Shown here: piece by piece, positions 3,161-45,608 of the stretch
Numbering within the stretch: the first letter of the stretch is position 1
Layout: each line of letters opens with the position of its first letter
Source: a virus
Taxonomy: Duplodnaviria; Caudoviricetes
Virus record (IMG/VR): IMGVR_UViG_3300009128_001408
Coordinates: 2,082-66,081 of that record
Length of the DNA stretch: 64,000 nucleotides
Direction: 5' to 3' (one strand)
Notes under the pieces: generated by a model
Database searches by the model: none
Seen by the model: only the letters and a program-made list of their open reading frames with translations
Told to the model about the DNA's origin: nothing
Program-made: the position numbers and the translations under genes

Positions 3161-3760
3161 CTATAGTGTTAACATCCACTCGATGGAGTGGATAACCTCT
3201 TGGCCGTTATAGCCACGATCTATATCTCGAATTACCATCTCCCTATCTATATAATAGAACGTCGGCCATGACTGGAGTGGCCACGGTCCTCCGGAGCTCT
3301 GAAGCAGTGTCCGATCGCCGACCAGGACCGGAGAGTCCGTGACGTCGAAGGTGTCCACCCATGACTGAATATCAGCAAGTGCAGGAGGAACACCCTGGCC
3401 GTTCTCAATCAGCACGGTCACATAAAGGACACCCTGGTCACGGTACTGGTCTTGGACATCCTGAGAATGTAGGCCTGCCTGGTTACACGGACCGCACCAC
3501 ATAGTTGAAAAGTCAAGAACAATAATGGAGCCAAAGTGCTCATATAGGTTAAACTCCTCATCGTTCTGATCCTGCAGTATCACATTGCAGGCATGCTCAC
3601 CCTCTGAACCGGCACACTCCTCCCATGTCACCCAAGGCATTGGATCAGGTTCCGGCTCAGGCGCAGGATATGGCGCATCAACAGGATCTGTGGGGGTGGA
3701 GGTCGCCGGAGTGCAGGCGACAAATAAAGCGGCCAGAAGAATACAAAGGTATCGAGTCAT
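3161..3760 (-). CDS. thioredoxin-fold (TlpA/ResA/AhpC-TSA-like) lipoprotein
   Basis: Lipobox FVAC, Pro-rich linker, LDFSTMWCGPC, cis-Pro WPTFY. Confidence 0.8.
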   Translation of the reverse strand: MTRYLCILLAALFVACTPATSTPTDPVDAPYPAPEPEPDPMPWVTWEECAGSEGEHACNVILQDQNDEEFNLYEHFGSIIVLDFSTMWCGPCNQAGLHSQDVQDQYRDQGVLYVTVLIENGQGVPPALADIQSWVDTFDVTDSPVLVGDRTLLQSSGGPWPLQSWPTFYYIDREMVIRDIDRGYNGQEVIHSIEWMLTL

Positions 3761-4867: not shown

Positions 4868-5347
4868 TCAGTCTCCTGTTATTGGAAATGGAGTCGCAGA
4901 TGGATCATCAAACCACAAATTATCACACATACTTTTAGGCAGATACCTAGTGCAGATCTCCTGACCTGGTTGAATTGTGCAACGACTGTAAAAATCCAGC
5001 GACTCATTCTCATAATTACACTTCCACGTCGCATTTGGACTGTTCGTGTCGTGATTATAGATGCCACCATAACCGAGAGAAAACGCGTTAATCTTTCCAT
5101 TCCATCCAAAAGGATACTCTAAGAGTGTAGTACGACCCTCCAAAAAATCATTCAAAATTTCAAAAACATCATTATGAAATAGAATAACAGGACATGCCTC
5201 TATTAGTTCATGCGCCTCGATCATATCCGTTGCAAACATTCCAATACCATGAATTGGAGACTCATCGACAACAACCTTATCGCTCACAAAAAATCTAGGA
5301 TACTCTTTTCTTGCCTTTCTAAACACATCAACCTCCAATATCAACAA
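4868..5347 (-). CDS. SET-domain (lysine methyltransferase-like) protein
   Basis: SPIHGIGMFA, GIYNH, IQPGQEICTRY. Confidence 0.8.
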   Translation of the reverse strand: MLILEVDVFRKARKEYPRFFVSDKVVVDESPIHGIGMFATDMIEAHELIEACPVILFHNDVFEILNDFLEGRTTLLEYPFGWNGKINAFSLGYGGIYNHDTNSPNATWKCNYENESLDFYSRCTIQPGQEICTRYLPKSMCDNLWFDDPSATPFPITGD

Positions 5348-5571
5348 TTCTCATCTAAAAATTTCTCCAAATAATCGACAAAAAATTTCTCAAACCTACG
5401 ATGACTCCATCTAGCAAGGTTCTCGTGTTGCTTAAACTTCTTCTTAAACTCGTTGGTCACATCGATGATGACATCAAAGCCTGATGATACATGCTCTACT
5501 GAAATGACTCGAAATGAGTACACAATGGCATCGTACTCAAGCTCAATCGTCTGATTGGGTGTTATTCTCAT
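5341..5571 (-). CDS. hypothetical protein
   Basis: ORF tiling the operon. Confidence 0.55.
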   Translation of the reverse strand: MRITPNQTIELEYDAIVYSFRVISVEHVSSGFDVIIDVTNEFKKKFKQHENLARWSHRRFEKFFVDYLEKFLDENC

Positions 5572-6244
5572 CTGCTAGCAGTTTCTGAGGTTTAAACTCA
5601 CGAAGCCTGACCTTTCCATCATTAATCTCGACATATGTCATATTAGACACCCAGTCTCCTGAATTGACATATGTCTTGATAGACTGATCCGCATGCACCC
5701 AGATGACTACCTCAGGAATATGCGTATGTCCCATTATAAACACATCGACGTCATTGTTCACGTCTAAGATAGCACTTATACTGCGAAGTTTGTGTTTCCT
5801 AAGCTGTCGGCGGACCCACCATGATGTCAGGTCAATACCAAACCACCTCTCCAGAATATCCTGTAATACCGATATAATCTTGACAAATCCCGCAGCGTTG
5901 ATCATACCAGTATTGTAACTATCGCCGTGCTCTATCCTAAAACTTCGGCCGCCATCAATAAACTCCACCGCACGGGTGAACTTGACTCCAAATATTTCGC
6001 TCCCAATCCAGCCAGCCAGAGACTCATCGTGATTGCCGACGATATAAACAACGTCAGCCCTGCTGCCTATTGCCTCTAGTATCCTGGCACAGTTTGCAGT
6101 CAGGACAGGTATCTTAATAAAATCAATAATGTCACCAGCTAAAATAAGCTGATCCATCTCCTGGGTGCTGAGAAACTCCAGCAGCTCATCCGACCTGTAA
6201 AAACTGCTGCCGACATGGGTGTCAGAGATGACAACTCTTTTCAC
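5543..6244 (-). CDS. calcineurin-like metallophosphoesterase (LpxH-like)
   Basis: ISDTH, GDIID, GNHD, EHGD, GHTH, NSGDW. Confidence 0.85.
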   Translation of the reverse strand: MKRVVISDTHVGSSFYRSDELLEFLSTQEMDQLILAGDIIDFIKIPVLTANCARILEAIGSRADVVYIVGNHDESLAGWIGSEIFGVKFTRAVEFIDGGRSFRIEHGDSYNTGMINAAGFVKIISVLQDILERWFGIDLTSWWVRRQLRKHKLRSISAILDVNNDVDVFIMGHTHIPEVVIWVHADQSIKTYVNSGDWVSNMTYVEINDGKVRLREFKPQKLLADENNTQSDD

Positions 6245-6267
6245 TGTCGACGCCCTCCTGCAACTCT

Positions 6268-6495
6268 TTAGCGCGGTGTCCTGGTGTATCCTTGACGCCT
6301 GGCGACCTCCGAGGACTCAAAACAGAACTCAGCACGAGTCACGTAATAATAACTATCGGTCGGCAGATGATAGTAGAATGAATCTGCATTTCCCTTAATG
6401 CGATGATGATCTGGACATGTCCCTGTTAGACTAATTGACCAATGAGCACATCCAGAAATCAGGATCGCCATCAAGATAAGTGCTGCTCTACCCAT
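6268..6495 (-). CDS. small lipoprotein with Ada-metal-binding/thermonuclease C-terminal-like domain
   Basis: Start [16 protein letters not shown] (lipobox); IKGN...YH.P...YY..T....CF.S...A...GY. Confidence 0.6.
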
Positions 6496-8362
6496 TTGCT
6501 TCCTCAAAGTCTGCATCAATAATTTCAGTGTCTGACACGTCTTCAGGTGGATCATCTGATTGTGACTGGTACAGGAGGGTAGCAAACTCGGAAGATGCTG
6601 CCTCTAGGTCAGCTGTGGCTGTCGTAAAATCGCCATCGGCATCGAGGACAGCCCGGGCCTCGTCGATGGCGGCGGTGACTGTGGCCTTAGCCGCCTCATC
6701 GACCTTGTCACCGTGTTCCTTGACTGTCCTGGCAAGCCCGTGAATTAGTGCCTCAAGTTTATTCTTCTCTTCAATCCTTGCGCGACGTGCCTGGTCTTCC
6801 TCGGCATTTTCCTCTGCATCCTGGACCATGGCATCTATATCGGCGTCGCTAAGAGAACCGGTCCCCTCAATCCGGATCGACTGCTCCTTGCCAGTCGCCT
6901 TGTCCTTGGCACCGACATTGACAATACCGTCGGCATCGATTGAGAATGTCACCTCAATCTGAGGGATACCTCGTGGAGCCGGCGGGAGACCTGTTAGGTT
7001 AAATCGGCCGAGAGTCTTGTTATCATTGGCAAACTGCCGCTCTCCCTGCAGGACGTGAATGTCCACTGCAGACTGGTTATCAGAAGCGGTGCTAAACGTC
7101 TCACTCTTCTCGCATGGAATCGTGGTATTACGATCGATCAGCTTCGTCATGACACCGCCCAGTGTCTCAATACCGAGACTGAGTGGTGTAACATCAAGAA
7201 GCAGTACGTCCTTGACATCACCCGTAAAGACTCCTCCCTGGACAGCTGCGCCAAGGGCGACAACCTCATCCGGGTTGACCGACTTATTAGCCTCCTTCTT
7301 GAAGAAGCCCTCCACGGCAGTGCGAACCGCTGGGATGCGTGTGGAACCTCCCACTAGGATAACCTCGTCGATTGCCCCGACCTTGAGGCCGGAGTCCTTT
7401 AAGGCACGCTTAACAGGCTTCATAGTCCTCTCGACAATCTCCGCCGTCAGCTGATCAAACTTAGATCGACTCAGCGTCAGCTGGAGGTGTTTAGGCCCAG
7501 TGGCATCGGCTGTCAGGAATGGTAGATTGATCTCGGTCTGCTGTGTGCTAGACAATTCAATCTTCGCCTTCTCGGCGGCCTCCTTAACACGCTGAAGCAC
7601 CATCTTATCTGACGCCAGGTCAATTCCGGTGTCGGCCTTAAACTCCGACATGATCCAAGCAATGACAATGTTGTCGAAGTCATCGCCGCCGAGGTGAGTA
7701 TCACCATTAGTGGCTAGCACCTCAATGACTCCATCACCAATCTCCAGGACAGAGATGTCAAACGTGCCACCGCCTAGGTCATAGACAACAACTGCCTGAT
7801 CGTTACCCTTGTCGAGACCGTACGCCAAAGCAGCTGCGGTAGGCTCATTGATGATTCGTTTAACGTTAAGACCTGCAATCTTACCGGCATCCTTTGTCGC
7901 CTGGCGTTGTGCATCATTGAAGTAGGCAGGAACAGTAACGACCGCATCACTTATCTCCTCACCCAAGTATTCCTCGGCAGCACGCTTGAGCTTCATTAAG
8001 ACCTGTGCCGAGATCTCTGGAGGTGACAGCTTCTTTCCATCCACCTCGATTGTACAAGCACCGCCCTTGCCAGATGCGATTGTATATGGCACTGACGCTG
8101 ACTCAGTCTTCGCATCGCGGTACTTGCAGCCCATAAATCTCTTAACAGAGAAGATGGTGTTCTGGGGGTTTGTAATCGCCTGGCGACGGGCAGGCTGGCC
8201 GACAAGGCGCTCGCCATCCTTCGTGTAAGCTATAACAGATGGAGTAGTTCGTGAACCCTCCTCGTTAGTGATGACCGTAGGGCCGGTCGATTCCATAACG
8301 GCAACGCACGAGTTCGTGGTGCCAAGATCAATTCCAATTACTTTATTAGACACTAGTAACAC
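6488..8362 (-). CDS. dnaK: molecular chaperone DnaK (Hsp70)
   Basis: [35 protein letters not shown]; start probably GTG at 8353. Confidence 0.97.
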
Positions 8363-8384
8363 ATCCTTTCAGTGTAACTGTGTT

Positions 8385-8412
8385 AATTTAATCACAGATT
8401 GACGGATGTACA
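8385..8412 (-). promoter_or_regulatory. class I promoter TGTACA-N16-TAAATT
   Basis: Conserved motif and spacing, upstream of dnaK. Confidence 0.55.
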
Positions 8413-8415
8413 GGC

Positions 8416-10110
8416 CTAAATTGTAGCAATAATTTTAGGGTCGACACCATGGGATCGTAGGAATTCACACCTATCTCTCTTCATCCTAGAAACCCAGTCT
8501 CGATATACTTCATTATCAATGACAGTCACAGGATTTAAGATCGCAGCAGGAACTAGCTCCAAAAGCGCTGAGTTGACTGGATCATCCACATCAACGATAT
8601 CGTAGCCAAAATCAGGATCAGTCTTCCAGGCAATAGTGCCAGCTAACATGGCCTCGAGCATTGATGATGAATGATGAATCTTAACCTTAAGATCAGCTCC
8701 AACATATCCTGTGTTCATCATCCACAAGGCGGTGCCAGGCATCGAGGCGACAAGTTCCGAAAAACGGGACGCCTGAAGACCGAACGACCTCGGGAAGAAT
8801 GGTTGTGTGAACGGAGAGCGCGTCTTACCCACCTCCTTGCCTGCGGCTGACGTCTTAGTCGTCTCGCCAAGCATAAAATATGCCGCAGCCTGGTCAGGAC
8901 TGGTAAATCTTACAATGCCTGGTGTAGCAGCGTCTTGACCCTCATCGCGGTTCAAGATTCCCATGCTAGTGACAGGAGGAATATCATACAAATCAGCAAC
9001 ATTGTCGATTACCGACATTGGGATAACTGATCGACCGTTCTGCGTCCACTCAACGAACTCCCATCCATCCTTAATAATACCATCAGCATCAAGCGTATCG
9101 TCATAGGTAACTATACCATCTAAGTACTGTTGTATCTTATCGGTATCAAAACCTGTGGCTTCTAGAACCGACCTAAACCGCTCTACGTCTAATTGGGACA
9201 TTCGCTTCTTATCGAAGTCATATGCGCCAGATTCGCCTACAAAAGTATTCTCAACCCATGCCAGTGAATTTAATGTCCCATCGTATATAATAGGCTCGCT
9301 ACTCCTAGTAAGACCTGCTGTCTTTGCAAAGCACCCAGACTCAGTCACTGACATTTCTCCGGACGGCCAAATCGTAACCATGTCATCCTGTATCGGCTGT
9401 GTCAGGTCTCCCTGCTGCGAAAAAGTCGTTGTCGTCTTTCCTGTACCAGACAGTCCCATAATAGTCATTGACATTCTCTCACCGGCTGATTCAATAAGCT
9501 TTGCGCCGGCATGAAGCACTAATCCGCCACGCTGGTAGGCATAATCATTCAGCATTCGAAGTGCTGCCTTCTTAGACTCACCGAAATAATCAGGACCGAT
9601 GATGTAGGTTCGATAGCTCTTAAGGTCGACAAGGATCGCTTGCCGGCCTGGCATGTCCTCAAGGAACAGATTAGGTGTGTAGATCACCTGAAACTCTGGC
9701 GTAAACTCTGGTGAGAAATCCAAAAATGTCATGTGTGACTGCATACCTGCAATATTTGCACCTTCCAGTGTATAAAGCCACTGGACAGGAACAGCCCGAT
9801 CACCTACACCGAGAGATCCCCTAATATCTATCAGGCGGCCGGCATCCTCAATGTACTGCCGCTGTATATCAATCAGCACCTGCGCCTTGGCTGGCGAGAT
9901 TACCTGATGGGAGTACTGATCAGCATTCACCTCATTGTCAATCACATATGTGTACTTTGCCATCCGCGCCTTATTTCGACTAACCTTCATAAGGTTGCCG
10001 TGTTCAGTCACAATGGTGCAGGGGGTGTGTGCAATTGCCAGCTCACGCAAGTGATCCTGGGTTGGGTTTATTAAATAGTTAACATCAAAGGGTCTGACAT
10101 TGTGTGCCAT
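8416..10110 (-). CDS. pckA: phosphoenolpyruvate carboxykinase (ATP), divergent
   Basis: GESKK, LHAGA, GLSGTGKTT, QDD, ESGCFAK, TQNGR, MNTGY; start MAHNV at 10110 after the aceA stop. Confidence 0.85.
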   Translation of the reverse strand: MAHNVRPFDVNYLINPTQDHLRELAIAHTPCTIVTEHGNLMKVSRNKARMAKYTYVIDNEVNADQYSHQVISPAKAQVLIDIQRQYIEDAGRLIDIRGSLGVGDRAVPVQWLYTLEGANIAGMQSHMTFLDFSPEFTPEFQVIYTPNLFLEDMPGRQAILVDLKSYRTYIIGPDYFGESKKAALRMLNDYAYQRGGLVLHAGAKLIESAGERMSMTIMGLSGTGKTTTTFSQQGDLTQPIQDDMVTIWPSGEMSVTESGCFAKTAGLTRSSEPIIYDGTLNSLAWVENTFVGESGAYDFDKKRMSQLDVERFRSVLEATGFDTDKIQQYLDGIVTYDDTLDADGIIKDGWEFVEWTQNGRSVIPMSVIDNVADLYDIPPVTSMGILNRDEGQDAATPGIVRFTSPDQAAAYFMLGETTKTSAAGKEVGKTRSPFTQPFFPRSFGLQASRFSELVASMPGTALWMMNTGYVGADLKVKIHHSSSMLEAMLAGTIAWKTDPDFGYDIVDVDDPVNSALLELVPAAILNPVTVIDNEVYRDWVSRMKRDRCEFLRSHGVDPKIIATI

Positions 10111-10120
10111 AATCTTTTCC

Positions 10121-11398
10121 TTAAAACTGCTCTGACTCCGTAGATTCCGCCATGGCAGTTGTAGAAGAGGTGCCGCCTGATATAACTCCGGTGACATCAT
10201 CAAAGTATCCGGTTCCAACCTCACGCTGGTGCTTAACAGCAGTGTAACCGACATTCACCTGATTAAATTCGTGATTCTGTAACGCTGAGTATGCTTTCAT
10301 CCCGTGCTCCAGGTAACCCCTCGCAAGATCAAACATTCCCATATTAAGAGAGTGAAATCCTGCTAATGTCACAAACTGAAATGTGTATCCCATCTCAGCA
10401 AGTTGTCCCTGAAATGACCTGATATCTGGTGGGCTCAAGTGTTTGGACCAGTTAAATGAGGGTGAGCAATTATATGCCAACATCTTTCCAGGAAACTCGG
10501 CATGAATGGCATCGGCAAATCGGCGTGCCTCATCAATACTGGGTGTTGATGTCTCACACCAGATTAGGTCAGCATAAGGAGCATAGGCGAGACCACGCGC
10601 GATGGCAACGTCCAGGCCTCCCGTAATCCTAAAGAATCCCTCAGGTGTCCTATCAAGCTGCCCGTCAGTAGCGGTAATAAACTGGCGATCCCTCTCGTCA
10701 ATATCCGATGTCAAAAGTTTGGCACTATTAGCATCAGTCCTGGCAATAAGGATCGTGGGTGTGTCCATCACGTCAGCCGCAAGACGTGCAGCCTTAAGAG
10801 TGCGCAGGAAGTGTGATGTGGGGACCAGAACCTTGCCGCCTAAGTGACCGCACTTCTTCTCAGAGCTAAGCTGGTCCTCAAAGTGGACGCCGGCTGCTCC
10901 TGCCTCGATCATGGCCTTCATCATCTCAAAGGCATTGAGGGGCCCACCGAAACCAGCCTCAGCGTCTGCGACAATCGGAACAAACCAGTCACGGGTGACA
11001 TCACCCTCGGAACTCTCGACCTGGTCAGCTCTCTGAAGGGCCTGATTTATCTTCTTAACGACATTGGGAACGCTGTTTGCAGGGTACAGGCTCTGATCCG
11101 GATACATATGGCCTGACAGGTTATTGTCGGCAGCGACTTGCCAGCCGCTTACGTAAATTCCCTGGAGACCTGCCCTTGCCTGCTGGACAGCCTGGTTGCC
11201 TGTAAGAGCTCCCAAAGCCCTGACGGCATCGGTGTCTGGATTGATCATGGCACTCCATAACCTTTCGGCGCCCTTTCGTGCAAGTGTGTGTTCTACCCTT
11301 ACGCTCCCACGAAGACGTTCAACGTCCTTCTGGGTGTAATCCCTCTGTATTCCAGTCCATCTGTCAGTTGTCAATTTACCTAGTCTCCCGTAGGTCAT
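10121..11398 (-). CDS. aceA: isocitrate lyase
   Basis: [23 protein letters not shown] catalytic motif, [21 protein letters not shown]. Confidence 0.97.
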
Positions 11399-12971
11399 GC
11401 CTTGGTTCCAACATGTCGTACGCATCCAATGTTAAGAACGACGCAAAGTCACTCGTTAGTGCGGTGTCGCGAAGAATCTCGGCCGCATCGTCAATCCTAC
11501 TATCCCTTAAGTCAGTTGTTTCTTCCTTAATGGCAGTCACCGCATTTTTAATGTAATTATCCACTAGTCGCATGGTCACTGGCTCCCCATTCGAGAGGTT
11601 CACGCCATGATAAACCCACTGCCAAATCTGCGCCCTTGAAATCTCGGCTGTGGCAGCGTCCTCCATCATATTATACAATGGAACACATCCAGCGCCACGT
11701 AACCATGATTCTATATATCTCAACGACACGTCAATATTCTTAACTAGCCCGCCAACAGTTCGCCTACCAATTGTCGGTGGCTCGCGAAGGTCCGCTGCTG
11801 TCACGGTTGTATTAAATCGTGGCACCGACATAATCTGATTCGACGTTGGCATATGAGTGTCAAAAATATCCCTAGCCAGGGAGACAAGCGCGGGATGTGC
11901 CACCCACGTGCCGTCATGCCCCATCTTCACCTCTCGAAGCTTATCTTTGCGAACGGCGCCCAATGCTCGATCATTGGCCTCTTCGTCTCCCTTAATCGGG
12001 ATCTGTGCCGCCATACCCCCCATGGCGTGGGCCCCCCTGCGGTGACATGTGTCGATCAGGCGGCGAACATAGGCATTCATGAATGGTGACTCCATGGTGA
12101 CGTCTGATCTGTCTGGCAAAATGTACTGCTCATCGTGGCCGATAGTCTTAATATAACTAAAGATATAGTCCCACCTCCCGCAGTTAAGACCAGCAGAGTG
12201 TTCACGAAGTGCAAACAGTATCTCCTCCATCTGATAAGCTGCCGGGAGGGTCTCAATCAGAACAGTCGCCCTGATTGTCCCGATAGGAATTTTTACGTAG
12301 CTTTGGGCAAAACTAAACACTTGGTTCCACCAGGCAGCTTCCTGCGCTGACTCCAGCTTAGGAAGATAGAAATAAGGACCTGTATCACGGTCAATGAGCT
12401 CCTGCGCATTATGAAAGAAGTAGAGGCCAAAATCAACAAGACTAGCCGGGATGGGCTCATCACCAAACAGAATATTACACTCGTCTAAATGCAGGCCCCT
12501 GGGACGAACCATTAGTACTGCGGGCTGATCATTCAAGTGATATGTTCCCTTAGTTGGATGCTCGAACGTTATATCACGCCTGACAGCATCACGAAGATTC
12601 TGCTGGCCCTCCATAACATTACTCCACGTGGGCGACAGGGAGTCCTCGAAGTCAGCCATAAACGCCTGAGCGCCTGAGTTGAGGGCATTTATCACCATCT
12701 TTCGATCAGTCGGACCTGTAATCTCAACCCGGCGATCTTGGAGGTCATCTGGAATCTTTGCAACTGTCCATTTCGCCGAACGAATATCAGCCGTGGTAAA
12801 CGGATAGTCCAAATTAGTACCCGACTCATGTCGCCACTCCGACATCCTCTCTCGATTTTCTAAAAGATCATTTCGTAGGGGTGTAAACATCGCCGACAGT
12901 GCTTCCAAAAATGCCAGCGCATCTGGGGTTAAAATATCCTGGTACTTTTCAGCAGCGGTCACTCTCATCAC
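11376..12971 (-). CDS. aceB: malate synthase A
   Basis: [47 protein letters not shown]. Confidence 0.97.
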
Positions 12972-13897
12972 TTTGTCATCTCCTTCACATCGGCAAGCAT
13001 TCCAACTAAATCAAGACCTGCGCAGTCAATCTTATTTCTCGTCAAATTATAATGATTAACGAATCCCTCAAATCGATTCTTAGTGCACTCCTTAGAGACA
13101 GTAGTTATGAGCTTGCCGTCATCATCAGTAGGGCACTCAAATGGTATGTCAGTGGCGCGATGCACAGCCACCCAAAGAGCCTTTAATGCCTGGAGTTGTA
13201 CTGGATAGAAGTCCATAAACGGCTTCATGGATTGGCCGTGACACTGGGCACCTTCAACTAGGGGGCGCCTATTAAATCCTCGTCGAACATACGTGTCCTG
13301 ATACTTTGGATAGTAAGCGTTACTGATCTCGACGCCGATGCTGGAATGGTTCCAGGCTCGACCTGAGGCATGCCACGCAGTGTGCTGAGTGTCTAGAAGC
13401 TGGTAGATTGTGCCATCATTATCTATGCAGAAATGAATTGATATACCTCGTTTATTAAGGACCTGTGAACACGATTTAGCGGAAAGACAGACATCCCAGT
13501 GATTGACAAAAAACTTAGGCTTTCGATCTGGTTTTCCTGCATAGGACGTATAGTTTCCGTCCTTAGCCGCCAATCCGCCTTCCTCATCCCACAGCACAAC
13601 TGAGTCCCAATCGATGGGAAAGAAGTTGCCATTATGGACGATGTGATTGTTGGAGGACAACTTCATGGACCTGACAGCTATGGCCTCTGCGTCGCTAATA
13701 TTCGACTCACGTTCTGTCCAAACCCGACGATATGTCATTGGACCGACTAGCCCATCTGCAGTCAAGCCTATACCGCGCTGCCACTTTCTAACAGCTTTCA
13801 CCAGGTCCTCGTCAAACTCCTCAGCGCCGAACCAGCTAGGATCCCATCCAAGCTTAGCGGCTGATGCCTCATTATAAAAATTCTTATCAATTGCCAT
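12968..13897 (-). CDS. N-acetylmuramoyl-L-alanine amidase with peptidoglycan-binding domain (probable endolysin)
   Basis: WQRGIGLTADGLVGPMT PG-binding; HW, SIHFCID, AWHA, SIGVEI, NH...KIDC Amidase_2 motifs. Confidence 0.85.
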   Translation of the reverse strand: MAIDKNFYNEASAAKLGWDPSWFGAEEFDEDLVKAVRKWQRGIGLTADGLVGPMTYRRVWTERESNISDAEAIAVRSMKLSSNNHIVHNGNFFPIDWDSVVLWDEEGGLAAKDGNYTSYAGKPDRKPKFFVNHWDVCLSAKSCSQVLNKRGISIHFCIDNDGTIYQLLDTQHTAWHASGRAWNHSSIGVEISNAYYPKYQDTYVRRGFNRRPLVEGAQCHGQSMKPFMDFYPVQLQALKALWVAVHRATDIPFECPTDDDGKLITTVSKECTKNRFEGFVNHYNLTRNKIDCAGLDLVGMLADVKEMTK

Positions 13898-14165
13898 TTA
13901 AATCTCTCCTAAGATACTCCTTGATAATCATTAACTTTTTCTTCCTGGAGAGTGACTTTATCCGGCGCTCCTCTCTGAGCGCAGCAGACTGGGTCATCTC
14001 AGGACCTGCGTAGACAATACTAACAGGTCGACGGGACCTTGTATATTTGGCACCACGACCTGAATTGTGCGTACGAACTCTTCTAGATATGTCCGTCGAC
14101 ACCCCTGTATAGAGGGTATCATCCGAACACCTAACGATATATACATACCACGACCTGGAACTCAT
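13887..14165 (-). CDS. GIY-YIG nuclease (UPF0213/YhbQ-like)
   Basis: YVYIVRC..LYTG...R..HNSGRGAKYTR, ALREE..IK. Confidence 0.9.
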   Translation of the reverse strand: MSSRSWYVYIVRCSDDTLYTGVSTDISRRVRTHNSGRGAKYTRSRRPVSIVYAGPEMTQSAALREERRIKSLSRKKKLMIIKEYLRRDLNGN

Positions 14166-15178
14166 CTGAGATTTATGTGAGTCAATCCCTCGGTGGTGCC
14201 GGATGATGTCTGCTCAACAAACCGCGCCTTAGCTCTAAACTCGCGCAAGTCTCGAGCGCCGGTGTATGAAAGCCCACTCCTAATTCCCGTCTTTATCTCG
14301 TACAGTTTCTCAGCGACTCCACCTCGATATGGAACCGTAGATGAGACGCCCTCAATGGAGGCCGTATGGCCTCGCCACTCGATCTGAGCGTCCTTGCTAG
14401 CCATTCCTCGATATACCTTTCTCTTCTGTCCCTTTACAAAGATAGCGTCTCCAGGCGTCTCGGCATGCCCAGCCAGCATAGAGCCCAGCATAACAAAATC
14501 AGCGCCGGCAGCGAGAGCCTTGACAATATCACCTGACGTCCTCAGTCCACCGTCAGCAATTAACTTGGCATTCCTATCGGACGACGCGCAGCTAATAATT
14601 GACTCAAGCGTTGGCATGCCGTGGCCTGTCTGGGTGCGGGTGGAGCAGATACTACCACCACCAATGCCAACACGAATAGAGTCGGCGCCCCAGTCGGCCA
14701 AGTCATTAAATGCGTCAAGAGTTGCAACATTGCCTGCCATGATGTGAACGGCGTCTCCAAAAATTTCCCGAAGATCGGAAAGCATCTTCTTCATCAGGAT
14801 ATGATGGCCATGTGCAATATCAACGCACAGAATATGGACACCAGCATCGTAAAGAGCAGTAGCACGCTCTAAGTGTGCGCTCCCCACTCCAATTGCAGCT
14901 GCAACATGAACTGTTCCAATATCACGAGTCTTTTTAACAATCGCGACCTGCTGTTTCACTGAATTGTACCTGTGAATCACGCCCAGGCCCCCGATGTCCT
15001 CCATAGCACGGGCCATATAGTGCTCCGTGACGGTGTCCATGGGACTGGATATAATCGGGACATCCAAAGTGAGAGCGTCAGGTCGAAGCTCGGAACTGAT
15101 ATCAATCTCCGATCGACTCTTGATAGCAGAAAACTGTGGAACTAATAGGACATCATCAAAGCAGATTGTCTTTTTCAT
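14162..15178 (-). CDS. guaB: IMP dehydrogenase / GMP reductase family, no CBS domains
   Basis: FDDVLLVP, MDTVT, GIGGGSICST, IADGG, YRGMAS; IMPDH versus GMPR not separable by eye. Confidence 0.8.
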   Translation of the reverse strand: MKKTICFDDVLLVPQFSAIKSRSEIDISSELRPDALTLDVPIISSPMDTVTEHYMARAMEDIGGLGVIHRYNSVKQQVAIVKKTRDIGTVHVAAAIGVGSAHLERATALYDAGVHILCVDIAHGHHILMKKMLSDLREIFGDAVHIMAGNVATLDAFNDLADWGADSIRVGIGGGSICSTRTQTGHGMPTLESIISCASSDRNAKLIADGGLRTSGDIVKALAAGADFVMLGSMLAGHAETPGDAIFVKGQKRKVYRGMASKDAQIEWRGHTASIEGVSSTVPYRGGVAEKLYEIKTGIRSGLSYTGARDLREFRAKARFVEQTSSGTTEGLTHINLR

Positions 15179-15909
15179 ATTTCAATCTCCAGCGGAAGCC
15201 ACGGGCAAAACCCGGACTTCTCGCCAATATTCTCGTATCCAAATGGGTTGCAGACGACACGCGTGTCGCCTATATTATAAAAGGAGCAGGTGTGAGTGTG
15301 GCCGTGGATCCATGCCCTAGGCTGAATCTCCTCGATCATGTCATCCATCGGGCAGACAAAAAATCGATTAAACGGTGATGCGATATATTGTTGTGCCACC
15401 GATCGGTGACTAGGCAGAAAATGCGTAATCACCACGTCAGATTCAACGACGGTATTCCTAAGGTAGGCCTGGGACTTGACGTTCTGGTCATACACCCAGT
15501 CACGAAATTCAGGTATCTGTCCAAAATCAGCCATCGGCCGTTCGAACTTCTTATTGCTCTCCTGGAATGGAAACCACAACGTCGACCCGACGAACCTAAC
15601 GCCGCATAGTTCGACCGCGGAATTATCAAGGTGATAGAAGTTGGAGTACTTTTGGGAGATCCCGTCAATTGTGGCCTGGAGTTTAGCAACAGGATTATTG
15701 TAGTGTTCGTGATTGCCTGCCACATAAATTACATGCTGAAACTCCTCGCAGAATGTCCCTAGCACACTAGGAAGTCGAGTGCCAGAATTACAGACGTCTC
15801 CTGCCACAACTAAGACATCCACATCGCGGTTCAGGGCCCGCAACATCTCCTCAAATGTTCCGGGCTGCATGTGATCCACATGAAGGTCGCTAATTGGCAG
15901 TACTATCAT
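15175..15909 (-). CDS. calcineurin-like metallophosphoesterase
   Basis: SDLH, AGD, GNHE, THF, HGHTH, CNPFGY. Confidence 0.85.
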   Translation of the reverse strand: MIVLPISDLHVDHMQPGTFEEMLRALNRDVDVLVVAGDVCNSGTRLPSVLGTFCEEFQHVIYVAGNHEHYNNPVAKLQATIDGISQKYSNFYHLDNSAVELCGVRFVGSTLWFPFQESNKKFERPMADFGQIPEFRDWVYDQNVKSQAYLRNTVVESDVVITHFLPSHRSVAQQYIASPFNRFFVCPMDDMIEEIQPRAWIHGHTHTCSFYNIGDTRVVCNPFGYENIGEKSGFCPWLPLEIEI

Positions 15910-17546
15910 TGCATTCGCCGCTTAAAGTCAGCAGGAAAGAACCTGGTCGCCCTTCCAAAGAATGTCATCCAGTCGGAGTCTAAAACGTACGTGACGGCAT
16001 AGTCGTCGAAATTTCGAATACTTCGGCCAGTTGCCTGGATCAGGGTCTTCGCAGTCTGGAGGGGATACCACCATGACCACTTATTCATTCGCTTGCGAAC
16101 CAACGGATCTCCGAAGTACGGATACGGTACCTTGCAGATTACCTGAAAGCGACTCAGGTCGTCTTTTAAGTCAACCCCTTCAGTCATAGATGGTGATAAT
16201 AGGACAGTAGGTTCGGATGACCCCAGATGACGTCTCAGGACCTCCTCGCGGTCTTCTGATGTGTGTATTAGGAGCCTCTTTCCCAAATTTCCCCTAATCT
16301 CGGCCTTGATGGCCTTTGCGATCTTAAATGTATGAGTATGAATTATTCCCTTCTCATCAGGATGCTGTCCAAGTAACTCACGAATAGTCTTGGTCATCTT
16401 AGGCAGCGTGGAGTCAATATTAGACTTATTCATACTGCCAACCCCTAAGGAAAAGACCGGACGGTGTTCAATTGGAAAAGGAGAGGGAATACTAATAAAC
16501 TCTGCCTCAGACTGTCGAATCCCTAATGAGCGACAGAATGCCTCCTTGTCCAGGATCGTAGCGCTCATTAGTAGCACCCGCTGACCAAGTCTGAGGAGGT
16601 ACGCCTCGGCAAAAGGCGCGATATCAATGGCACGGAACGTCATCTTGCGCTTGGACCGACCAAACGCCGGGACATTCTCAAAGACCCAGTTGCTGGCATC
16701 ATAGACGCTGAGGAAAGTCTCCAATCTGTCACAATGCCCGCGAAGCAGGTCAAACTCACGAGCTATCTTTCCAAACTCCTTCATTGTCTTCTCTAGGTCG
16801 GTGAACTTCTCCATCATCTTCTCGATGTGGTCCCTCTGTCGTTTGATCTTTGGAAAGTAAACACTTCTAATCCACTTGGATGCCTGAAACTGTGTCGGCT
16901 TTCCTGGCCAGTTAATGTCAAGCATCTGTTTGCAGAACCGCTCAGAGACCGTGACCTCGACGAACTTGCTCAGCTCAGACTCAGCATTGTGTGCCTCATC
17001 GACGACAAGCAGCTCTCGAGGCGTAATCTTTCCTGAGTAGTTTGATTCGGTAAGCAAATAGGGAAAGTTGGTGACAGACTCCGGAGAGTCGATGAAATCC
17101 TTCTTGGCAAGCTTATACCGACATGACTTGGTGCACGTCTTAAAAAACTTCCCTTCCCTTGGCGCAGTACGAAGTGCAGCCTGGGACTCTGAGCAATTAC
17201 TAGCCTTGTGAAACTTACATTGGTAGTTAGTGGATGACTTAATCGAGACCATTTGACCAGATGGGGCGCCAAAGTCCGATGTGTACTGATCCTGAAGTAG
17301 CTTCTGAGTCGTGACAAAATATGACCCGCGCTTATACCCATCGGCAGGGATCGTTAACTGGTTATCAAAGTACCGCGCGATGGTGACTCCAATGGCCGAT
17401 TTGCCAACACCAGTCCCGCCCTCTATGATAACGAACCGCTTGTTGGCGTTAAATGCCGTAAGCGTGGAGTCGATAGCGGTGCGCTGTGTGGCCCGCATCT
17501 CATCATAGGGAAAAAATTTATCGTAGTCTACTGTCATCTTTGCCAA
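15906..17546 (-). CDS. DinG/Rad3-like SF2 helicase
   Basis: GTGVGKS, DEAH, SAT, EGVDL, QATGRSIR; Cys cluster. Confidence 0.88.
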   Translation of the reverse strand: MAKMTVDYDKFFPYDEMRATQRTAIDSTLTAFNANKRFVIIEGGTGVGKSAIGVTIARYFDNQLTIPADGYKRGSYFVTTQKLLQDQYTSDFGAPSGQMVSIKSSTNYQCKFHKASNCSESQAALRTAPREGKFFKTCTKSCRYKLAKKDFIDSPESVTNFPYLLTESNYSGKITPRELLVVDEAHNAESELSKFVEVTVSERFCKQMLDINWPGKPTQFQASKWIRSVYFPKIKRQRDHIEKMMEKFTDLEKTMKEFGKIAREFDLLRGHCDRLETFLSVYDASNWVFENVPAFGRSKRKMTFRAIDIAPFAEAYLLRLGQRVLLMSATILDKEAFCRSLGIRQSEAEFISIPSPFPIEHRPVFSLGVGSMNKSNIDSTLPKMTKTIRELLGQHPDEKGIIHTHTFKIAKAIKAEIRGNLGKRLLIHTSEDREEVLRRHLGSSEPTVLLSPSMTEGVDLKDDLSRFQVICKVPYPYFGDPLVRKRMNKWSWWYPLQTAKTLIQATGRSIRNFDDYAVTYVLDSDWMTFFGRATRFFPADFKRRMQ

Positions 17547-17589: not shown

Positions 17590-18117
17590 TTAAAAACTAT
17601 CTGGCTGTTCCAGGTCAGGCTGTTGTCTGTAATCTACTGTTATCTCGTCACCAGCCGCAATATCCTGGAGGGCGAATAGCCTTCGGACGCCGCGGCGGAG
17701 TACATTGCCAGCATTCGGCTCGTCACTATGATTGTGAAATGCTCCAAGATTTGTGGGGATATAACTGTTGGCTGCAGCGATGTGTGAGATCCCAAGATTA
17801 GTTCCCGCCGGGATATCGGCCGAGGCGAAGACACCGGTGCCATGAACACCTGAATCCTGAAGGTGCATAGGTACTGTCTGTTCGATGGCCAGCTCCTGCT
17901 GGACACCATCTGGATTTTTACAGTGCCACTTGATATGGTCCTCATAGTCCTTGATGGACACCTGGCCATCGGAGTCTAAATCAAAGTGGTGAAACAGTTC
18001 CATCGGTGTTAGATTACCGTCACCGTTGGGATCTAGGGGAGAGGCGGGTGAACCGGTCTCCTCATTAATAACAGTCTCGATTACGTGGCGAAGCGCCCCC
18101 TTGTTAATTTTCATCAC
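17590..18117 (-). CDS. leader + paired EF-hand + SET-domain protein
   Basis: MMKINKGALRHVIETVINEE; DPNGDGNLTPME and DLDSDGQVSIKD; HGTGVFA, HNHS..PN, GDEITVDY. Confidence 0.8.
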   Translation of the reverse strand: MMKINKGALRHVIETVINEETGSPASPLDPNGDGNLTPMELFHHFDLDSDGQVSIKDYEDHIKWHCKNPDGVQQELAIEQTVPMHLQDSGVHGTGVFASADIPAGTNLGISHIAAANSYIPTNLGAFHNHSDEPNAGNVLRRGVRRLFALQDIAAGDEITVDYRQQPDLEQPDSF

Positions 18118-20348: not shown

Positions 20349-21173
20349 TTAATCAGCACCAAATAAAAATTCCTCAACCTGAGGGATTATTTTAGCACGA
20401 ATTATCTTTACCGTCTCAGCAGGGCTGGATGTAATAAACGACCTACCCTCAGTTCGATACTTCTCGTATATCTCGTAGTCATTGCCCCCAGGCGTGCAAC
20501 TGTCACCCACAAACCAAACGGCCGGGTCGTTGTAGTGGCGCAGGCAAAATGTCTTATCCCATCCAGCGGGAAATATATCGAAACTAGTCTGTCCGCCATA
20601 CTTTATCACAATCCCATCAACATCAGCCATGGCCAGCTCAAGGCCCACTTTTAAACCAGTTCGAATATTGTGCTGCGTATCGGCCTCTATGAAGAGATTT
20701 CGATCATCGAAATCTGCACACCTTCCAATAGGGCACCAGTTAAGCAGGGATCCTCGATAGTCAACAAAATTACCGCACATTGGCAGATTGTAGACAGGCG
20801 CAATTTTAGTGGCGAATTTAAGCTGGCCCAGCTGGACCTCTGCCAACAGTTTTTGAAAACTAGTCTCACCAATCTCGTCTCGCATAGACACCGATGATGA
20901 CATCATAATCTTTTGCTCTGATGCATCCCAGTAATAATGCTGGGTGCCATTGCACGGAAGCAGGTCAATATTTTCGGTAACGGAACTGGGTGCTTGTTCA
21001 AAAAATGGTGCCAACTGCTCCTCAATAAGTGAGACCGGGCTTCCGGTCACCAATCCGATGTGAGAGGCCTCAGAAAGCTCTATCAGGACATCTATCATCG
21101 TCGACCCGATTTTTCGTCGTGGCTCCGTCAGAGTGCCGTCTATGTCAAAGAGGACAATCGTAGCGTCGTCCAT
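20349..21173 (-). CDS. HAD-IIB eukaryote-type phosphomannomutase
   Basis: FDIDGTLT.PR, NWCPIGR, GGQTSFDIFP.GWDK..CL, FVGD...GGNDYEIY. Confidence 0.85.
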   Translation of the reverse strand: MDDATIVLFDIDGTLTEPRRKIGSTMIDVLIELSEASHIGLVTGSPVSLIEEQLAPFFEQAPSSVTENIDLLPCNGTQHYYWDASEQKIMMSSSVSMRDEIGETSFQKLLAEVQLGQLKFATKIAPVYNLPMCGNFVDYRGSLLNWCPIGRCADFDDRNLFIEADTQHNIRTGLKVGLELAMADVDGIVIKYGGQTSFDIFPAGWDKTFCLRHYNDPAVWFVGDSCTPGGNDYEIYEKYRTEGRSFITSSPAETVKIIRAKIIPQVEEFLFGAD

Positions 21174-27111: not shown

Positions 27112-28716
<1,605 letters not shown>

Positions 28717-35590: not shown

Positions 35591-37228
35591 CTATTTCTTC
35601 AATTTCTCAGCGTGTTTTTGGTGCTTTTTAAATGCCTGCCCCACGGTTTCAAGAACTTCTCTGGCCATTTCATTTCCCTCAAATGTCTCAACAACGTCCT
35701 CAGTCTGCTTAATGTATCCATCGGCAGCATCCTTTGTAAACGTCCTGAGTAGACGGGAGACATCATCCTCAAACTCCTTTAGTCTGACATTGATTTTCTT
35801 GGCATTTCTAAGTATTATCTCTGGATTTTCCTCTTCAAGCTTGGTGTATTCACTTTGTTTTGTGGGGACATTCTCCGCACCAAATTCGGCTTCATATTCA
35901 GCTCTTCGTGACTTATCAGTAGCAGACGGAAGACCTACATAGCCACCTGCGCCGGGCTTAAGTTTCACATCTTCAAACCCACCCAAAAGCACCTCGGAAA
36001 AAATCCTTTTAGACAGCTCAGCGAAGCTTTCATTATCCATAAACTCCAAGCCAAAGGCGTCATATAATTCCCTTAAAACCATCTCATTTTGGGACTGGGA
36101 CTTATCCTGATAGGGCTCAACGCTAAGATCTCCATTATAAAGCGACGTAAAAACAAAGGACTTCACACCTGTCCTAAATAATTGATTAAAGCTCATTACA
36201 AGTAGAGGTAAGAGTTTTTCATATGCGCTCTTCTTCTCGGGAATAACCACACCTTTGTTGTCAAAAAAGTATCTAATTCCTAAATTCTCATTAAACCTGC
36301 CCAAAACATTCCTAATTGCGCTAACGCCCATTTTAACGCCCTCGGCCTTAAGCTGCTCAGAAATCTTCTTTAATAGTTCAGACTCAGAGCCAGTCTTACC
36401 AGTAGCTGCCCTATCCTTGCTTCCCTTATATGCGGCCTCATGTGCATCAGTCCAGAAAGGTGGGCCCAGTTTTCTCAATGCGCTAATATCACCAGGAAGA
36501 TAAGCGCGCTGAACATCTCTAATAATATCATCTGCCCTAGAGTCATCAGTTTTCTCAAATTCGACATACATGTCACTGATCTCTTCCATAGGCTTCTCAC
36601 CAAGCCGCCTTATAATCCATGGACTCATCATTCGAAAATCACTCCAAGGATCCCTATAGTCTAAACCTTCTCGATTAAACCCATCTAAAGCTTCCTGCTG
36701 GGACGATTGTTCCACAAGTACCTGTCTAACAGTCTTCCTAACCCGATGCTCTGTTACCTGCGTTTGGGCGATACGCCTGATCCTCTCAGCGACTGTGACA
36801 TCCACCTGGTCCTCGGCATTTGCCTCCTCCTGGTCGGCACGCTCCAGCTCCTGGTCGGGACTCGGCTCTGGCATCATATCTGTCTGGTCCTCACCGGCTC
36901 GGTCCTGCTGTCGAATCGATGTGGTGACGAGCCTCCTGAGCTTGTGATAGAAGTCCTGGACCTGGAGTGGCGGCACGTTCTGAACAAGGACGTTGGCTGC
37001 GTGCTGAAGCTGTTGGAGGTTTCCTGGTAGGAACTCGGCGTCATTGACAGGCGGATCGACCATCTCATCGCCGATCATGGCGGCTATGTTAACAGGAAGG
37101 TCGTGCACAGGAAGCTCCTGGACAGCGGCTGGTGCCTCTTCGGCTGCCTGCATATGGGTTTCATCGGCCTCAGTTCCCGGTGCGTCCAGGCGCTCCCTCA
37201 GGACCCTTCTAAGTTGTTTGTAATCCAT
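35591..37228 (-). CDS. large hypothetical protein with leader MDYKQLRRVLRE
   Basis: AGGAG RBS; class II motif at 37248-37257. Confidence 0.7.
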   Translation of the reverse strand: MDYKQLRRVLRERLDAPGTEADETHMQAAEEAPAAVQELPVHDLPVNIAAMIGDEMVDPPVNDAEFLPGNLQQLQHAANVLVQNVPPLQVQDFYHKLRRLVTTSIRQQDRAGEDQTDMMPEPSPDQELERADQEEANAEDQVDVTVAERIRRIAQTQVTEHRVRKTVRQVLVEQSSQQEALDGFNREGLDYRDPWSDFRMMSPWIIRRLGEKPMEEISDMYVEFEKTDDSRADDIIRDVQRAYLPGDISALRKLGPPFWTDAHEAAYKGSKDRAATGKTGSESELLKKISEQLKAEGVKMGVSAIRNVLGRFNENLGIRYFFDNKGVVIPEKKSAYEKLLPLLVMSFNQLFRTGVKSFVFTSLYNGDLSVEPYQDKSQSQNEMVLRELYDAFGLEFMDNESFAELSKRIFSEVLLGGFEDVKLKPGAGGYVGLPSATDKSRRAEYEAEFGAENVPTKQSEYTKLEEENPEIILRNAKKINVRLKEFEDDVSRLLRTFTKDAADGYIKQTEDVVETFEGNEMAREVLETVGQAFKKHQKHAEKLKK

Positions 37229-37277
37229 GTCTACTCCTAGCACTCCAGATAAATATCAAGTAAGGTGCCTTTAATCA

Positions 37278-40995: not shown

Positions 40996-41691
40996 CTACC
41001 TCGAGACCTGTGCAATTCTCTCAGCCCTGACAAAGCGATTCTCGATAACATCCCAGTTCAGTTGTGCCATCATGTTATACAGGTACTGCCTCTTATTCTT
41101 TAGGTAGTCGTGGAAGTATGCGTGCTCCCACATGTCCATGACAATGACCGGCACACATCCCATTGGAACGTTTCGATCGTGACCGTCGATAATAATATTG
41201 ACGTAGCCCTGTAGGTACGTATTGAAACAACAAACAGCCCACCCTGACTGGGCGGACATTGCGCAGGCGATAAAATCCTCCTGCCAGGAGTCGAAGTTGC
41301 CCCAGTCTCTGGACAACCGCATGTATGACAGTGAATCCATGGCCAGCTCTGAGACTGGTGCTGCGATATTGGCGAAGTACAGCTCGTGGAGGTAGAGGGC
41401 GGCCATGTTGGACTGTTCGGCCAGCTTAGTGTCACGGAACACTGAGCATATAGCATTGGCATCCTCGCGAGGAATACCATCCAGCTCAGCTGATGTCTTG
41501 TTAAAGCACGCCACATAATTCTTGTACAGCTCGATGTGGGCGGTCTTCGCCTTTTGGCTCAGCTTCTCAGTGTTGAGGTCGAACTGCTTGACTTGAGCGA
41601 CAAACGCCTCTGTCAGTATTTCAGGCGTCGGCTGGTCATCATCCATCCCCATGGACTCCCTAATGTTCTTTTTAATATCGTCGTATTTCAT
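40996..41691 (-). CDS. Fe/Mn superoxide dismutase with N-terminal extension
   Basis: Metal ligands H (AHIELY), H (LHELYF), DMWEHAY; extension MKYDDIKKNIRES...ILTE. Confidence 0.85.
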   Translation of the reverse strand: MKYDDIKKNIRESMGMDDDQPTPEILTEAFVAQVKQFDLNTEKLSQKAKTAHIELYKNYVACFNKTSAELDGIPREDANAICSVFRDTKLAEQSNMAALYLHELYFANIAAPVSELAMDSLSYMRLSRDWGNFDSWQEDFIACAMSAQSGWAVCCFNTYLQGYVNIIIDGHDRNVPMGCVPVIVMDMWEHAYFHDYLKNKRQYLYNMMAQLNWDVIENRFVRAERIAQVSR

Positions 41692-43158: not shown

Positions 43159-43581
43159 TTAAATATTGTCCTCAACATGGAATTTCCTGACTTTTACTCC
43201 CGCATCGTGGAGTATATCCAGGCCTGTTGTATCCCTGTACTGGACATCATAGACGACCTCGTTGATCCTGGCATTAACAATAGCCTTAGCACACATTCGA
43301 CATGGTGACAGCGTCAGGTACATCACCTTGCGCTGTGGGTAGTTATAATCTAGCTTGATAAGAGCATTGATCTCGGCATGTATCATACCGGACTCGCCAG
43401 GCAAATTCGACTCCACAGTATTGGGCCCGCCGCGGTAGTCACCGTTGTATCCGACCGACAGGACCTGTGTCCCCTCAGCATTGACGATAGCTGCTCCAAC
43501 CTTGTGCCTCGGGTCGACAGATCGGCCAGCAATAATGTGGGCAACACCCATCCAGATCTCATCCCACGTCGGTCGGCTCAT
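43159..43581 (-). CDS. dCMP deaminase
   Basis: RPTWD, VGA, GYNG, HAEINA, SPCRMC. Confidence 0.92.
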   Translation of the reverse strand: MSRPTWDEIWMGVAHIIAGRSVDPRHKVGAAIVNAEGTQVLSVGYNGDYRGGPNTVESNLPGESGMIHAEINALIKLDYNYPQRKVMYLTLSPCRMCAKAIVNARINEVVYDVQYRDTTGLDILHDAGVKVRKFHVEDNI

Positions 43582-44824: not shown

Positions 44825-44835
44825 AAGTCTTCCTG

Positions 44836-45405: not shown

Positions 45406-45608
45406 TACTCTTCCTCAAGCAGTAACACATCTCCGGATTGAGCTGACTCACTCTCGGCCAGTGCAGACCTATACTCACTAATGACATGATCAAATATGTC
45501 CTTGGCCAGATGCTTCCTAGCAATGGCTGATGAGAAGTTCAAGTCTTGACGAGCGTCATCCAGGGCGCTAATAATTGATGCCTTAACAATCATCTCAAAA
45601 TTTTTCAC
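45405..45608 (-). CDS. hypothetical protein
   Basis: GGAGG RBS. Confidence 0.6.
   Translation of the reverse strand: MKNFEMIVKASIISALDDARQDLNFSSAIARKHLAKDIFDHVISEYRSALAESESAQSGDVLLLEEE

Follow-up and report, generated by a model that had tools for sequence, protein, structure and literature searches.

Here we report that a 64,000-nucleotide stretch of viral DNA (the window; bases 2082-66081 of the single 66,081-bp contig of IMG/VR virus record IMGVR_UViG_3300009128_001408) carries, at positions 8416-12971, three neighbouring genes for an aceB-like malate synthase A (MS), an aceA-like isocitrate lyase (ICL) and a divergent ATP-type phosphoenolpyruvate carboxykinase (PCK). Acting together, ICL and MS make one net C4 acid from two acetyl-CoA with no loss of CO2, and PCK converts oxaloacetate to phosphoenolpyruvate (PEP). 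The interpretation that we favour, with a probability of roughly 0.6, is that the three genes form an operon-like phage pathway from acetyl-CoA to PEP that was joined within one phage lineage and vertically kept there, and that the window represents about a quarter of a marine huge phage of roughly 235-245 kb infecting a bacterium. The bolder statement, that a huge-phage lineage built this three-step module and kept the operon under strong purifying selection while its PCKs diverged to 67-91% identity, is advanced tentatively, at a little below even odds.

All three genes lie on the minus strand, which carries 87 of the 96 open reading frames (ORFs) of at least 50 aa in the window. MS (11376-12971) encodes 531 aa from a GTG start, ICL (10121-11374) 417 aa from TTG 11374, and PCK (8416-10110) 564 aa from ATG 10110. 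An earlier note on this DNA, made from its letters alone, had described the three genes as adjacent, co-oriented and full length; ORFs together with Pfam and NCBIfam matches bear this out, with two starts corrected. The longest ORFs of ICL (10121-11425) and PCK (8416-10254) overlap the upstream genes and probably begin at the wrong codons, ICL having alternative ATG starts at 11398 and 11425. TTG 11374 and ATG 10110 are the most likely starts because border sequences and homologue starts agree: the MS/ICL border reads TAA-A-TTG with GGGAG upstream, the ICL/PCK border reads TAA-GGAAAAGATT-ATG with AAGGA preceding an ATG that sits 10 nt past the ICL stop, and homologues begin at the equivalent MTDRW (ICL) and M..RPFDV (PCK) positions. 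Spacing is tight throughout (4-nt overlap between the upstream amidase gene and MS, 1 nt between MS and ICL, 10 nt between ICL and PCK, 53 nt between PCK and the downstream dnaK), and the string of overlapping co-directional genes extends upstream of the cassette as far as a helicase gene at 17546. Promoter and terminator consensus scans gave no convincing site within the cassette and returned, overall, modestly more sites than shuffled sequence (29 versus 17.4 +/- 4.6, and 15 versus 9.5 +/- 3.0, respectively). A small inverted repeat, CTGTG..CACAG, in the PCK-DnaK spacer (8363-8415) is, as a sequence feature, too weak for a terminator call. Judged by its gene order and spacing, the layout is operon-like.

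The E-values place the identities of all three genes beyond chance, and malate synthase and isocitrate lyase activities are predicted from the matches. All three malate synthase domains were found in MS (Pfam MS_TIM-barrel 360.6 bits, MS_C 121.9, MS_N 32.8), which scores 742 bits against the malate synthase A equivalog TIGR01344 (cut-off 594.5) and at most 29 bits against malate synthase G models, and aligns end to end with the Bacillus and E. coli malate synthase A structures (PDB 3cux, 574 bits over residues 9-521; 3cuz, 564 bits). The active-site strings of malate synthases (the Arg in RPRG, GRWDY and the Asp motif) occur in the window as well as in two related contigs introduced below (L018 and L020). 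ICL matches Pfam ICL (PF00463) with 353.5 bits, NCBIfam NF011645 with 726 bits (cut-off 562; profile positions 19-428 of 430) and PDB 7cmx with 635 bits, end to end. The KKCGH loop, the catalytic signature of isocitrate lyases, is intact in the window, as the earlier note had it, and in related contigs L017-L020.

The third enzyme is more divergent. PCK matches Pfam PEPCK_ATP (PF01293) with 160.3 bits (E 8.6e-47; gathering cut-off 26.5), and by sequence its best solved structure reaches just 79 bits. A search of 5.8 billion proteins places it in a large subfamily with members of about 565-600 aa each, whose named members at about 60% identity come from metagenome-assembled genomes (MAGs) labelled Myxococcota, Deltaproteobacteria, Planctomycetes and Sandaracinus. 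Species-representative genomes contributed 44 loci at 51-63% identity and added Gemmatimonadota, WOR-3, Atribacterota and 'Enterobacterales' bins. We know of no characterised member of this subfamily. Across a 23-sequence subfamily alignment the strings YFGESKK, LHAGAK, GLSGTGKTT (the P-loop reported by the earlier note), IQDD, GCFAK, NGRS and NTGY are invariant, as are residues Y175, K180, K181, H200, G219-T229, D242, D243, K263 and R360, and these motifs align with the matching motifs of the Thermus enzyme 1j3b. By motif, the E. coli equivalents are Y207, K212, K213, H232, K254, D268, D269, K288 and R333; Y207, K212, K213, K254 and D269 agree with the mutant names in PDB titles.

An AlphaFold2 model of PCK built on the same alignment is confident (predicted local distance difference test 86.2, predicted TM score 0.88). 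In Foldseek it superposes over its whole length on the Thermus and E. coli ATP-type enzymes at about 20% identity, with TM scores of 0.72-0.76 for the query (TMq) and 0.76-0.82 for the target (TMt). ATP-type carboxykinases as a group were matched at E 1e-33 to 1e-29 (TMq 0.69-0.76), and GTP-type ones at about 1e-23 to 1e-22, some 10 orders of magnitude weaker. In comparison with canonical PckA (TIGR00224; 1aq2, 1j3b), the window protein likewise is full length with a two-domain fold and has in common the P-loop GLSGTGKT and the YxGExKK, His, DD, GCxAK and NxR motifs; it differs in its identity of only about 20% and in belonging to a subfamily of proteins of about 565-600 aa from marine Myxococcota, Planctomycetota, WOR-3 and other MAGs. 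The invariant motifs, the confident model and the whole-length fold match point to a working ATP-type PEP carboxykinase.

Several results weigh against reading this protein as a conventional gluconeogenic enzyme. It falls below every NCBIfam PEPCK cut-off (the best, NF006821, gives 252.9 against 369; TIGR00224 gives 82.6 bits against 590), and in an 86-row tree a very long branch separates its subfamily from Salmonella and Staphylococcus PckA. Because of these failed cut-offs and this branch, substrate, nucleotide and reaction direction are not assured by the sequence, and some ATP-type carboxykinases run in the carboxylating direction. The ATP-type assignment of the earlier note therefore stands as far as fold and motifs go, but the gene is not canonical pckA: on its sequence, PCK is a member of the PEPCK_ATP superfamily in a separate subfamily.

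The module is conserved in four further marine contigs, of which L018 (PCK 76% identical to that of the window) and L020 (67%) carry MS-ICL-PCK-DnaK, L018 with flanks, while L017 (91%) and L019 (68%) carry ICL-PCK-DnaK; in all five contigs the gene that follows PCK is dnaK. L018 is a 234,650-bp metagenome contig in which 21.7 kb around PCK are collinear with window positions of approximately -241 to 20318, with 27 ORFs in common at 37-97% amino-acid identity. More PCKs at 67-91% identity were found in the protein database on contigs of up to 165,519 and 141,331 bp, and the exact window protein occurs on 12 contigs. A check of the phylogenies proposed with the earlier note gave a lineage-specific clade for each gene, with a Shimodaira-Hasegawa-like approximate likelihood ratio test (SH-aLRT) value of 100 in the PCK (12 lineage rows), ICL (5) and MS (3) trees and stems of 0.33-0.5; a caution on these groupings is that the trees are quick maximum-likelihood searches (LG+G4) with long branches flagged for ICL and MS. 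Ratios of nonsynonymous to synonymous substitution (dN/dS) between the window and L017 are 0.059 for PCK (dS 0.88), 0.044 for ICL and, in a similar range, 0.021 for DnaK, and are given for this pair alone, dS being saturated in all but a few pairs. Since the lineage forms clades and dN/dS is low, these comparisons indicate that PCK and ICL are under strong purifying selection and that the module is vertically inherited in the phage lineage.

The linkage to PCK sets this lineage apart. MS and ICL are adjacent in 61 of 270 fetched loci, mostly cellular, the aceBA order being common, and PCK stands beside ICL or MS solely in L017-L020 among these 270, with L043 as one partial case; linkage of all three genes was found in 0 of the 204 GTDB cellular loci examined. 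The nearest cellular relatives also differ by gene. In the trees the PCK clade falls within a set of sequences from marine Myxococcota, 'Enterobacterales' bins and Planctomycetota, and MS groups weakly (SH-aLRT 90) with marine Alphaproteobacteria, at 51-55% identity to the best species representatives. Cellular ICLs reach no more than 71% identity to the ICL of the window, which groups with six IMG/VR huge-phage ICLs (SH-aLRT 94, at a fork that is not starred). Because the PCK linkage is confined to the lineage and the nearest cellular relatives differ from gene to gene, the sequences are most simply read as an aceBA-type pair to which the phage lineage added a PCK with an origin of its own.

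The probable phage origin proposed in the earlier note remains the best reading of the contig, but the check suggested for terminase and capsid genes returned none. Family scans covered 50 window ORFs with PHROGs and 39 with Pfam (64 with at least one library). Capsid, portal, terminase and tail families were matched by 0 of the 50 and 0 of the 39, respectively, on about 27% of the genome, which counts against a viral assignment; a search of the contig for Gp23 (PF07068) gave no match, its control likewise giving none, and Terminase_6N was not detected in two distant MS-ICL records. The record is linear and not a provirus in IMG/VR, and its CheckV completeness of 27% for 66 kb implies a full genome of roughly 245 kb. 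PHROG matches in the window include DnaE, a sigma factor, an exonuclease, thymidine kinase, dCMP deaminase and an endolysin, and the recognised genes fit the mix typical of large phages. Around the cassette stand an endolysin-like amidase, a helicase and a sigma factor upstream and DnaK, a SET-domain protein and other ORFs downstream, with synteny in L018.

Two of the largest ORFs in the window also point to a phage. The 1655-aa ORF matches just five of 50,697 GenBank phage records, all of them 'uncultured phage' entries of 462-735 kb, which are curated genomes of huge phages. For the 981-aa ORF, GenBank phages gave no match, but it has 107 relatives elsewhere, of very variable length (700-1700 aa) and with short modules in common, some carrying PF13884, PF18454 or PF01391; this may be read as a tail-fibre-like mosaic pattern. 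Atlas look-alikes of both ORFs fall in clusters that are 100% viral (scores 0.91 and 0.87), which serves as a lead only. Together with a 695-aa ORF, these two probably encode tail-fibre or host-recognition proteins. On the whole of this gene content, the contig is very probably that of a phage.

Read data speak to the integrity of the cassette. Five runs, from two studies that may include the source sample of the window, contain nearly all of the 7.8 kb from DnaK to the amidase (0.98-0.99 of sampled words), and runs of other studies contain part of it; no RNA run is among those listed for this stretch. Over window positions 5000-16000, contigs from one run (X2) cover 5516-8673, 9424-12713 and 12684-16000, and contigs from another (X5) cover 7858-10785 and 10779-14423. 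The coverage across junctions that the earlier note had asked about is thus in place: independently assembled contigs of the two studies together bridge DnaK/PCK, PCK/ICL, ICL/MS and MS/amidase at an even depth (about 45-51x and 6.6-8x). Variant fragments, one of them spanning DnaK/PCK, come from runs of two further studies. The cassette region is not chimeric.

A three-gene pathway cassette was expected to be far less usual than a single auxiliary metabolic gene (AMG), and the database searches agree. No PHROG family matches MS, ICL or PCK at E <= 0.01. The GenBank phage collection yields 4 records for PCK, 4 for MS and 9 for ICL, and no genuine phage genome among them with all three. Matches of this kind might have suggested that the cassette is common in phages, a candidate reading that was rejected: they comprise Salmonella whole-genome contigs, fragments of 1.5-4.5 kb at host-like identity and Acinetobacter contigs with aceA and prpB, and were read as host DNA. 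Host-like records filed as phage include MG543995.1, AGRM01000003/5, AFYI01000007, the OR84xxxx/OR85xxxx fragments and CAKLQ... contigs; in 'Staphylococcus phage UPMK_1, partial genome', the neighbour of pckA is a dipeptidyl aminopeptidase gene, and this record too was read as host DNA. Such records can falsely suggest phage AMGs. The sole genuine-looking phage of the nine ICL-matching records is Phage C48C1 (OQ984149.1, Kyanoviridae, complete, 156 kb), whose ICL homologue at 44175-45416 is 54% identical to that of the window over 92% of the query; it differs in that ICL stands alone, annotated as hypothetical, with no MS or PCK match in the record. A peroxiredoxin gene lies 3 kb downstream of that ICL.

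In IMG/VR, 16 records (L001-L016) carry an ICL at 56-64% identity, one of them with terminal repeats and 100% completeness. MS accompanies ICL in 3 of the 16, and PEPCK_ATP and PEPCK_GTP in 0 of 16 each. IMG/VR pattern scans with PCK, MS and a PCK subfamily alignment (A2), records of or near the window genome being excluded, gave no relative, and a scan with a helicase alignment (A1), which has poor N-terminal patterns, found nothing. PEPCK-fold proteins in BFVD come from the giant viruses Catovirus and Klosneuvirus only.

The pair of shunt genes has been described in viruses before. Nishimura et al. 2017 (PMC5332604) reported an aceBA operon in TARA_ERS478052_N000008, a complete 179-kb marine viral genome with T4-like structural genes. 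As in the window, MS and ICL are adjacent in a marine double-stranded DNA phage; by its published description that genome also encodes a homologue of zeta toxin and functions in sugar-nucleotide and polysaccharide synthesis, where the window has a Zeta_toxin protein and a phosphomannomutase. The difference lies in the carboxykinase, which is absent from the main text of PMC5332604, whereas in the window lineage PCK is directly downstream. Passages of Hurwitz et al. 2013 (PMC4053976) describe aceAB in viromes, and excerpts of a preprint on huge phages (bioRxiv 10.1101/2025.02.27.640493) give 98 ICL and 22 MS genes in 98 phages, adjacent in 20. Those phages resemble the window lineage in carrying ICL and MS, sometimes side by side, and differ in that the main text of the preprint never uses the word 'carboxykinase', whereas the window lineage has PCK.

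Viral carboxykinases appear in other settings. According to parts of a review (PMC9270025), Mimiviridae encode PEPCK, isocitrate lyase and malate synthase; these giant viruses infect eukaryotes, and those parts do not present the genes as a single cassette. Unlike them, the window has a DnaE of bacterial type, a peptidoglycan amidase, a sigma-70-type factor and Shine-Dalgarno-led GTG/TTG starts, because of which a virus of eukaryotes is an unlikely source of the contig. Part of a study of trench sediments (PMC12448302) lists pckA among bulk viral AMGs. The word 'carboxykinase' occurs 0 times in the main texts of three phage papers, the supplements of which, outside this count, might list PCK by aceBA, and no description of a phage aceB-aceA-pck cassette was found in the literature searched (main texts, in part as excerpts, and not supplementary tables). 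The novelty raised in the earlier note, which had called for a literature check, is thus partial: the marine-phage aceBA pair is already in print (PMC5332604; excerpts of bioRxiv 10.1101/2025.02.27.640493), but the PCK linkage looks new. The phage glyoxylate-shunt pair is known, and its conserved, selected linkage to a divergent PCK in a huge-phage lineage appears undescribed.

In the mechanism that we propose, phage ICL and MS would sidestep the CO2-releasing steps of the tricarboxylic acid (TCA) cycle during infection and yield net C4 acids, and phage PCK would then take oxaloacetate to PEP. Carbon from host acetate, lipid or storage polymer could thereby enter gluconeogenesis and reach pentoses, nucleotides and sugar nucleotides. 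The three phage enzymes would override host control at the isocitrate branch point and might supply pentoses and nucleotides for a phage genome of about 240 kb, while the phage phosphomannomutase could channel carbon to sugar nucleotides.

Other explanations accept the phage module and change its purpose. PCK may instead carboxylate, running PEP + CO2 + ADP -> oxaloacetate + ATP, so as to prime the glyoxylate cycle and yield ATP; its subfamily lies a long way from canonical PckA and is uncharacterised, and the PCK fold search also matches the ATP-type enzymes of Anaerobiospirillum and Actinobacillus succinogenes, which work towards oxaloacetate. We consider this direction rather unlikely, given that the ATP-type enzyme of aerobic bacteria is normally gluconeogenic, that the shunt already yields net C4 acids, leaving an exit to PEP more needed than extra oxaloacetate, and that a phosphomannomutase in the same genome suggests a demand for hexose phosphate. 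Alternatively, the module could serve mainly to manage redox state, stress or nutrient limitation, lowering NADH and reactive oxygen species and saving carbon while an oligotrophic marine bacterium is kept alive through a long infection, with PCK draining surplus C4 acids. The same contig encodes a superoxide dismutase (SOD)-domain protein, an AhpC/TSA-like peroxiredoxin, DnaK and GroEL, and passages of virome work proposed the shunt as an energy or starvation response (PMC4053976), but tight linkage to PCK at a dN/dS of 0.06 argues that the PEP exit belongs to the selected function, and a primary stress role seems unlikely.

A role in host fitness, in which the cassette would aid growth of a lysogen or carrier on acetate or fatty acids, is improbable. 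It was proposed for the 179-kb aceBA marine virus with its zeta-toxin homologue (PMC5332604), and the window encodes a Zeta_toxin/AAA_33 domain protein (257-1114; 42.5 bits); against it, the scanned ORFs gave no integrase, excisionase or repressor, the sole hint being a weak helix-turn-helix match at 62676-62981, the record is linear and classed as other than a provirus, and the cassette sits within a string of replication and nucleotide-metabolism genes. Finally, the contig might be non-viral or chimeric, a piece of a cellular genome, megaplasmid or other mobile element whose cassette is ordinary cellular metabolism. Virion and packaging hallmark genes went undetected in 66 kb, and DnaK, GroEL, DnaE, SOD and the three enzymes look bacterial. 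We regard this as very improbable in view of the bridged junctions and their even depth, the viral class in IMG/VR, the 39 of 64 scanned ORFs that have no family, the negative tRNA scan of the window, the extreme strand bias, the homologues of the large ORF found solely in huge uncultured phages, and the 0 of 204 GTDB cellular loci with the PCK-ICL-MS linkage.

Among the neighbours of the cassette, the downstream DnaK (Hsp70; 6488-8362, minus strand) scores 854.8 bits against HSP70 and 977 bits against NF001413. Upstream on the same strand is an Amidase_2/PG_binding_1 endolysin-like protein (12968-13897) with Pfam and PHROG endolysin and amidase matches, which adjoins MS in L018 too, at 76% identity. 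It is followed, again on the minus strand, by a small ORF (13887-14165) and, by Pfam, an IMPDH/GMP-reductase-like protein of 338 aa (14162-15178), a metallophosphoesterase (15175-15909) and a helicase (15906-17546); neighbouring ORFs in this string overlap by 4-11 nt, and the string is collinear in L018. The IMPDH-like protein falls below NCBIfam cut-offs (IMP dehydrogenase 291 against 481.5, GMP reductase 236 against 397). The earlier note had connected the cassette with nearby nucleotide genes, and these are real (the IMPDH-like gene, a dCMP deaminase at 43159-43581, a thymidine kinase at 44836-45405 and a dTMP-kinase-like gene at 63040-63600), but not all of them are close. A phosphomannomutase-like gene (20349-21173, minus strand; Pfam PMM 131.6 bits, the eukaryotic-type PMM family) suggests phage sugar-nucleotide synthesis and is a possible sink for gluconeogenic carbon.

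Other recognised genes encode GroEL (27112-28716; 677 bits), a DnaE-type polymerase (phrog_405, 750 bits), a sigma factor (phrog_351), a 5'-3' exonuclease and a DHH phosphoesterase. Two antioxidant genes were also seen, one for a protein carrying the C-terminal domain of Fe/Mn superoxide dismutases (40996-41691; 73 bits) and one for an AhpC/TSA peroxiredoxin-like protein (3161-3760; 31 bits), as were two SET-domain proteins (4868-5347 and 17590-18117, the latter with a weak EF-hand match). The 981-, 695- and 1655-aa ORFs, which have no Pfam, PHROG or NCBIfam family, lie together at 52265-62689, and a 550-aa ORFan (35591-37243) has just 16 relatives, none with a Pfam family. A 65-aa ORF (2330-2527) is 97% identical to its L018 counterpart where neighbouring proteins are at 50-80%, and is on this comparison a small protein under unusual constraint.

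The same PCK subfamily also turned up in a second phage-like lineage, on L043 (1-10619), L055 (1-7568) and L054, where the genes after PCK encode HhH-GPD and Fpg/Nei glycosylases and a glutamine-synthetase-like protein; this lineage may carry the same PCK next to genes for base-excision repair and glutamine synthetase. A SET-domain protein is encoded on L043 as well, and a partial ICL lies 2.8 kb upstream there; L055 encodes ThyX and part of a DnaE that is 53% identical to the window DnaE. These PCKs stand apart from the window clade in the free tree, and an approximately unbiased (AU) test does not reject a single clade (p 0.43).

Viral shunt genes described earlier were mostly single or paired, with speculative roles; conserved linkage to PCK gives them a direction, in which carbon would exit the TCA cycle as PEP, and makes the three-gene cassette a compact, testable unit. 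It also draws attention to a divergent ATP-type carboxykinase subfamily that is widespread in marine MAGs and uncharacterised. If our reading is right, this would be the first gluconeogenic entry step encoded by a phage, physically coupled to a phage-encoded glyoxylate shunt, and the virus could switch an infected heterotroph to net synthesis of sugars and nucleotides from C2 carbon. If the enzymes are active, the split of acetate and lipid carbon between CO2 and biomass would be shifted in infected marine heterotrophs, which would bear on estimates of carbon flux through virocells.

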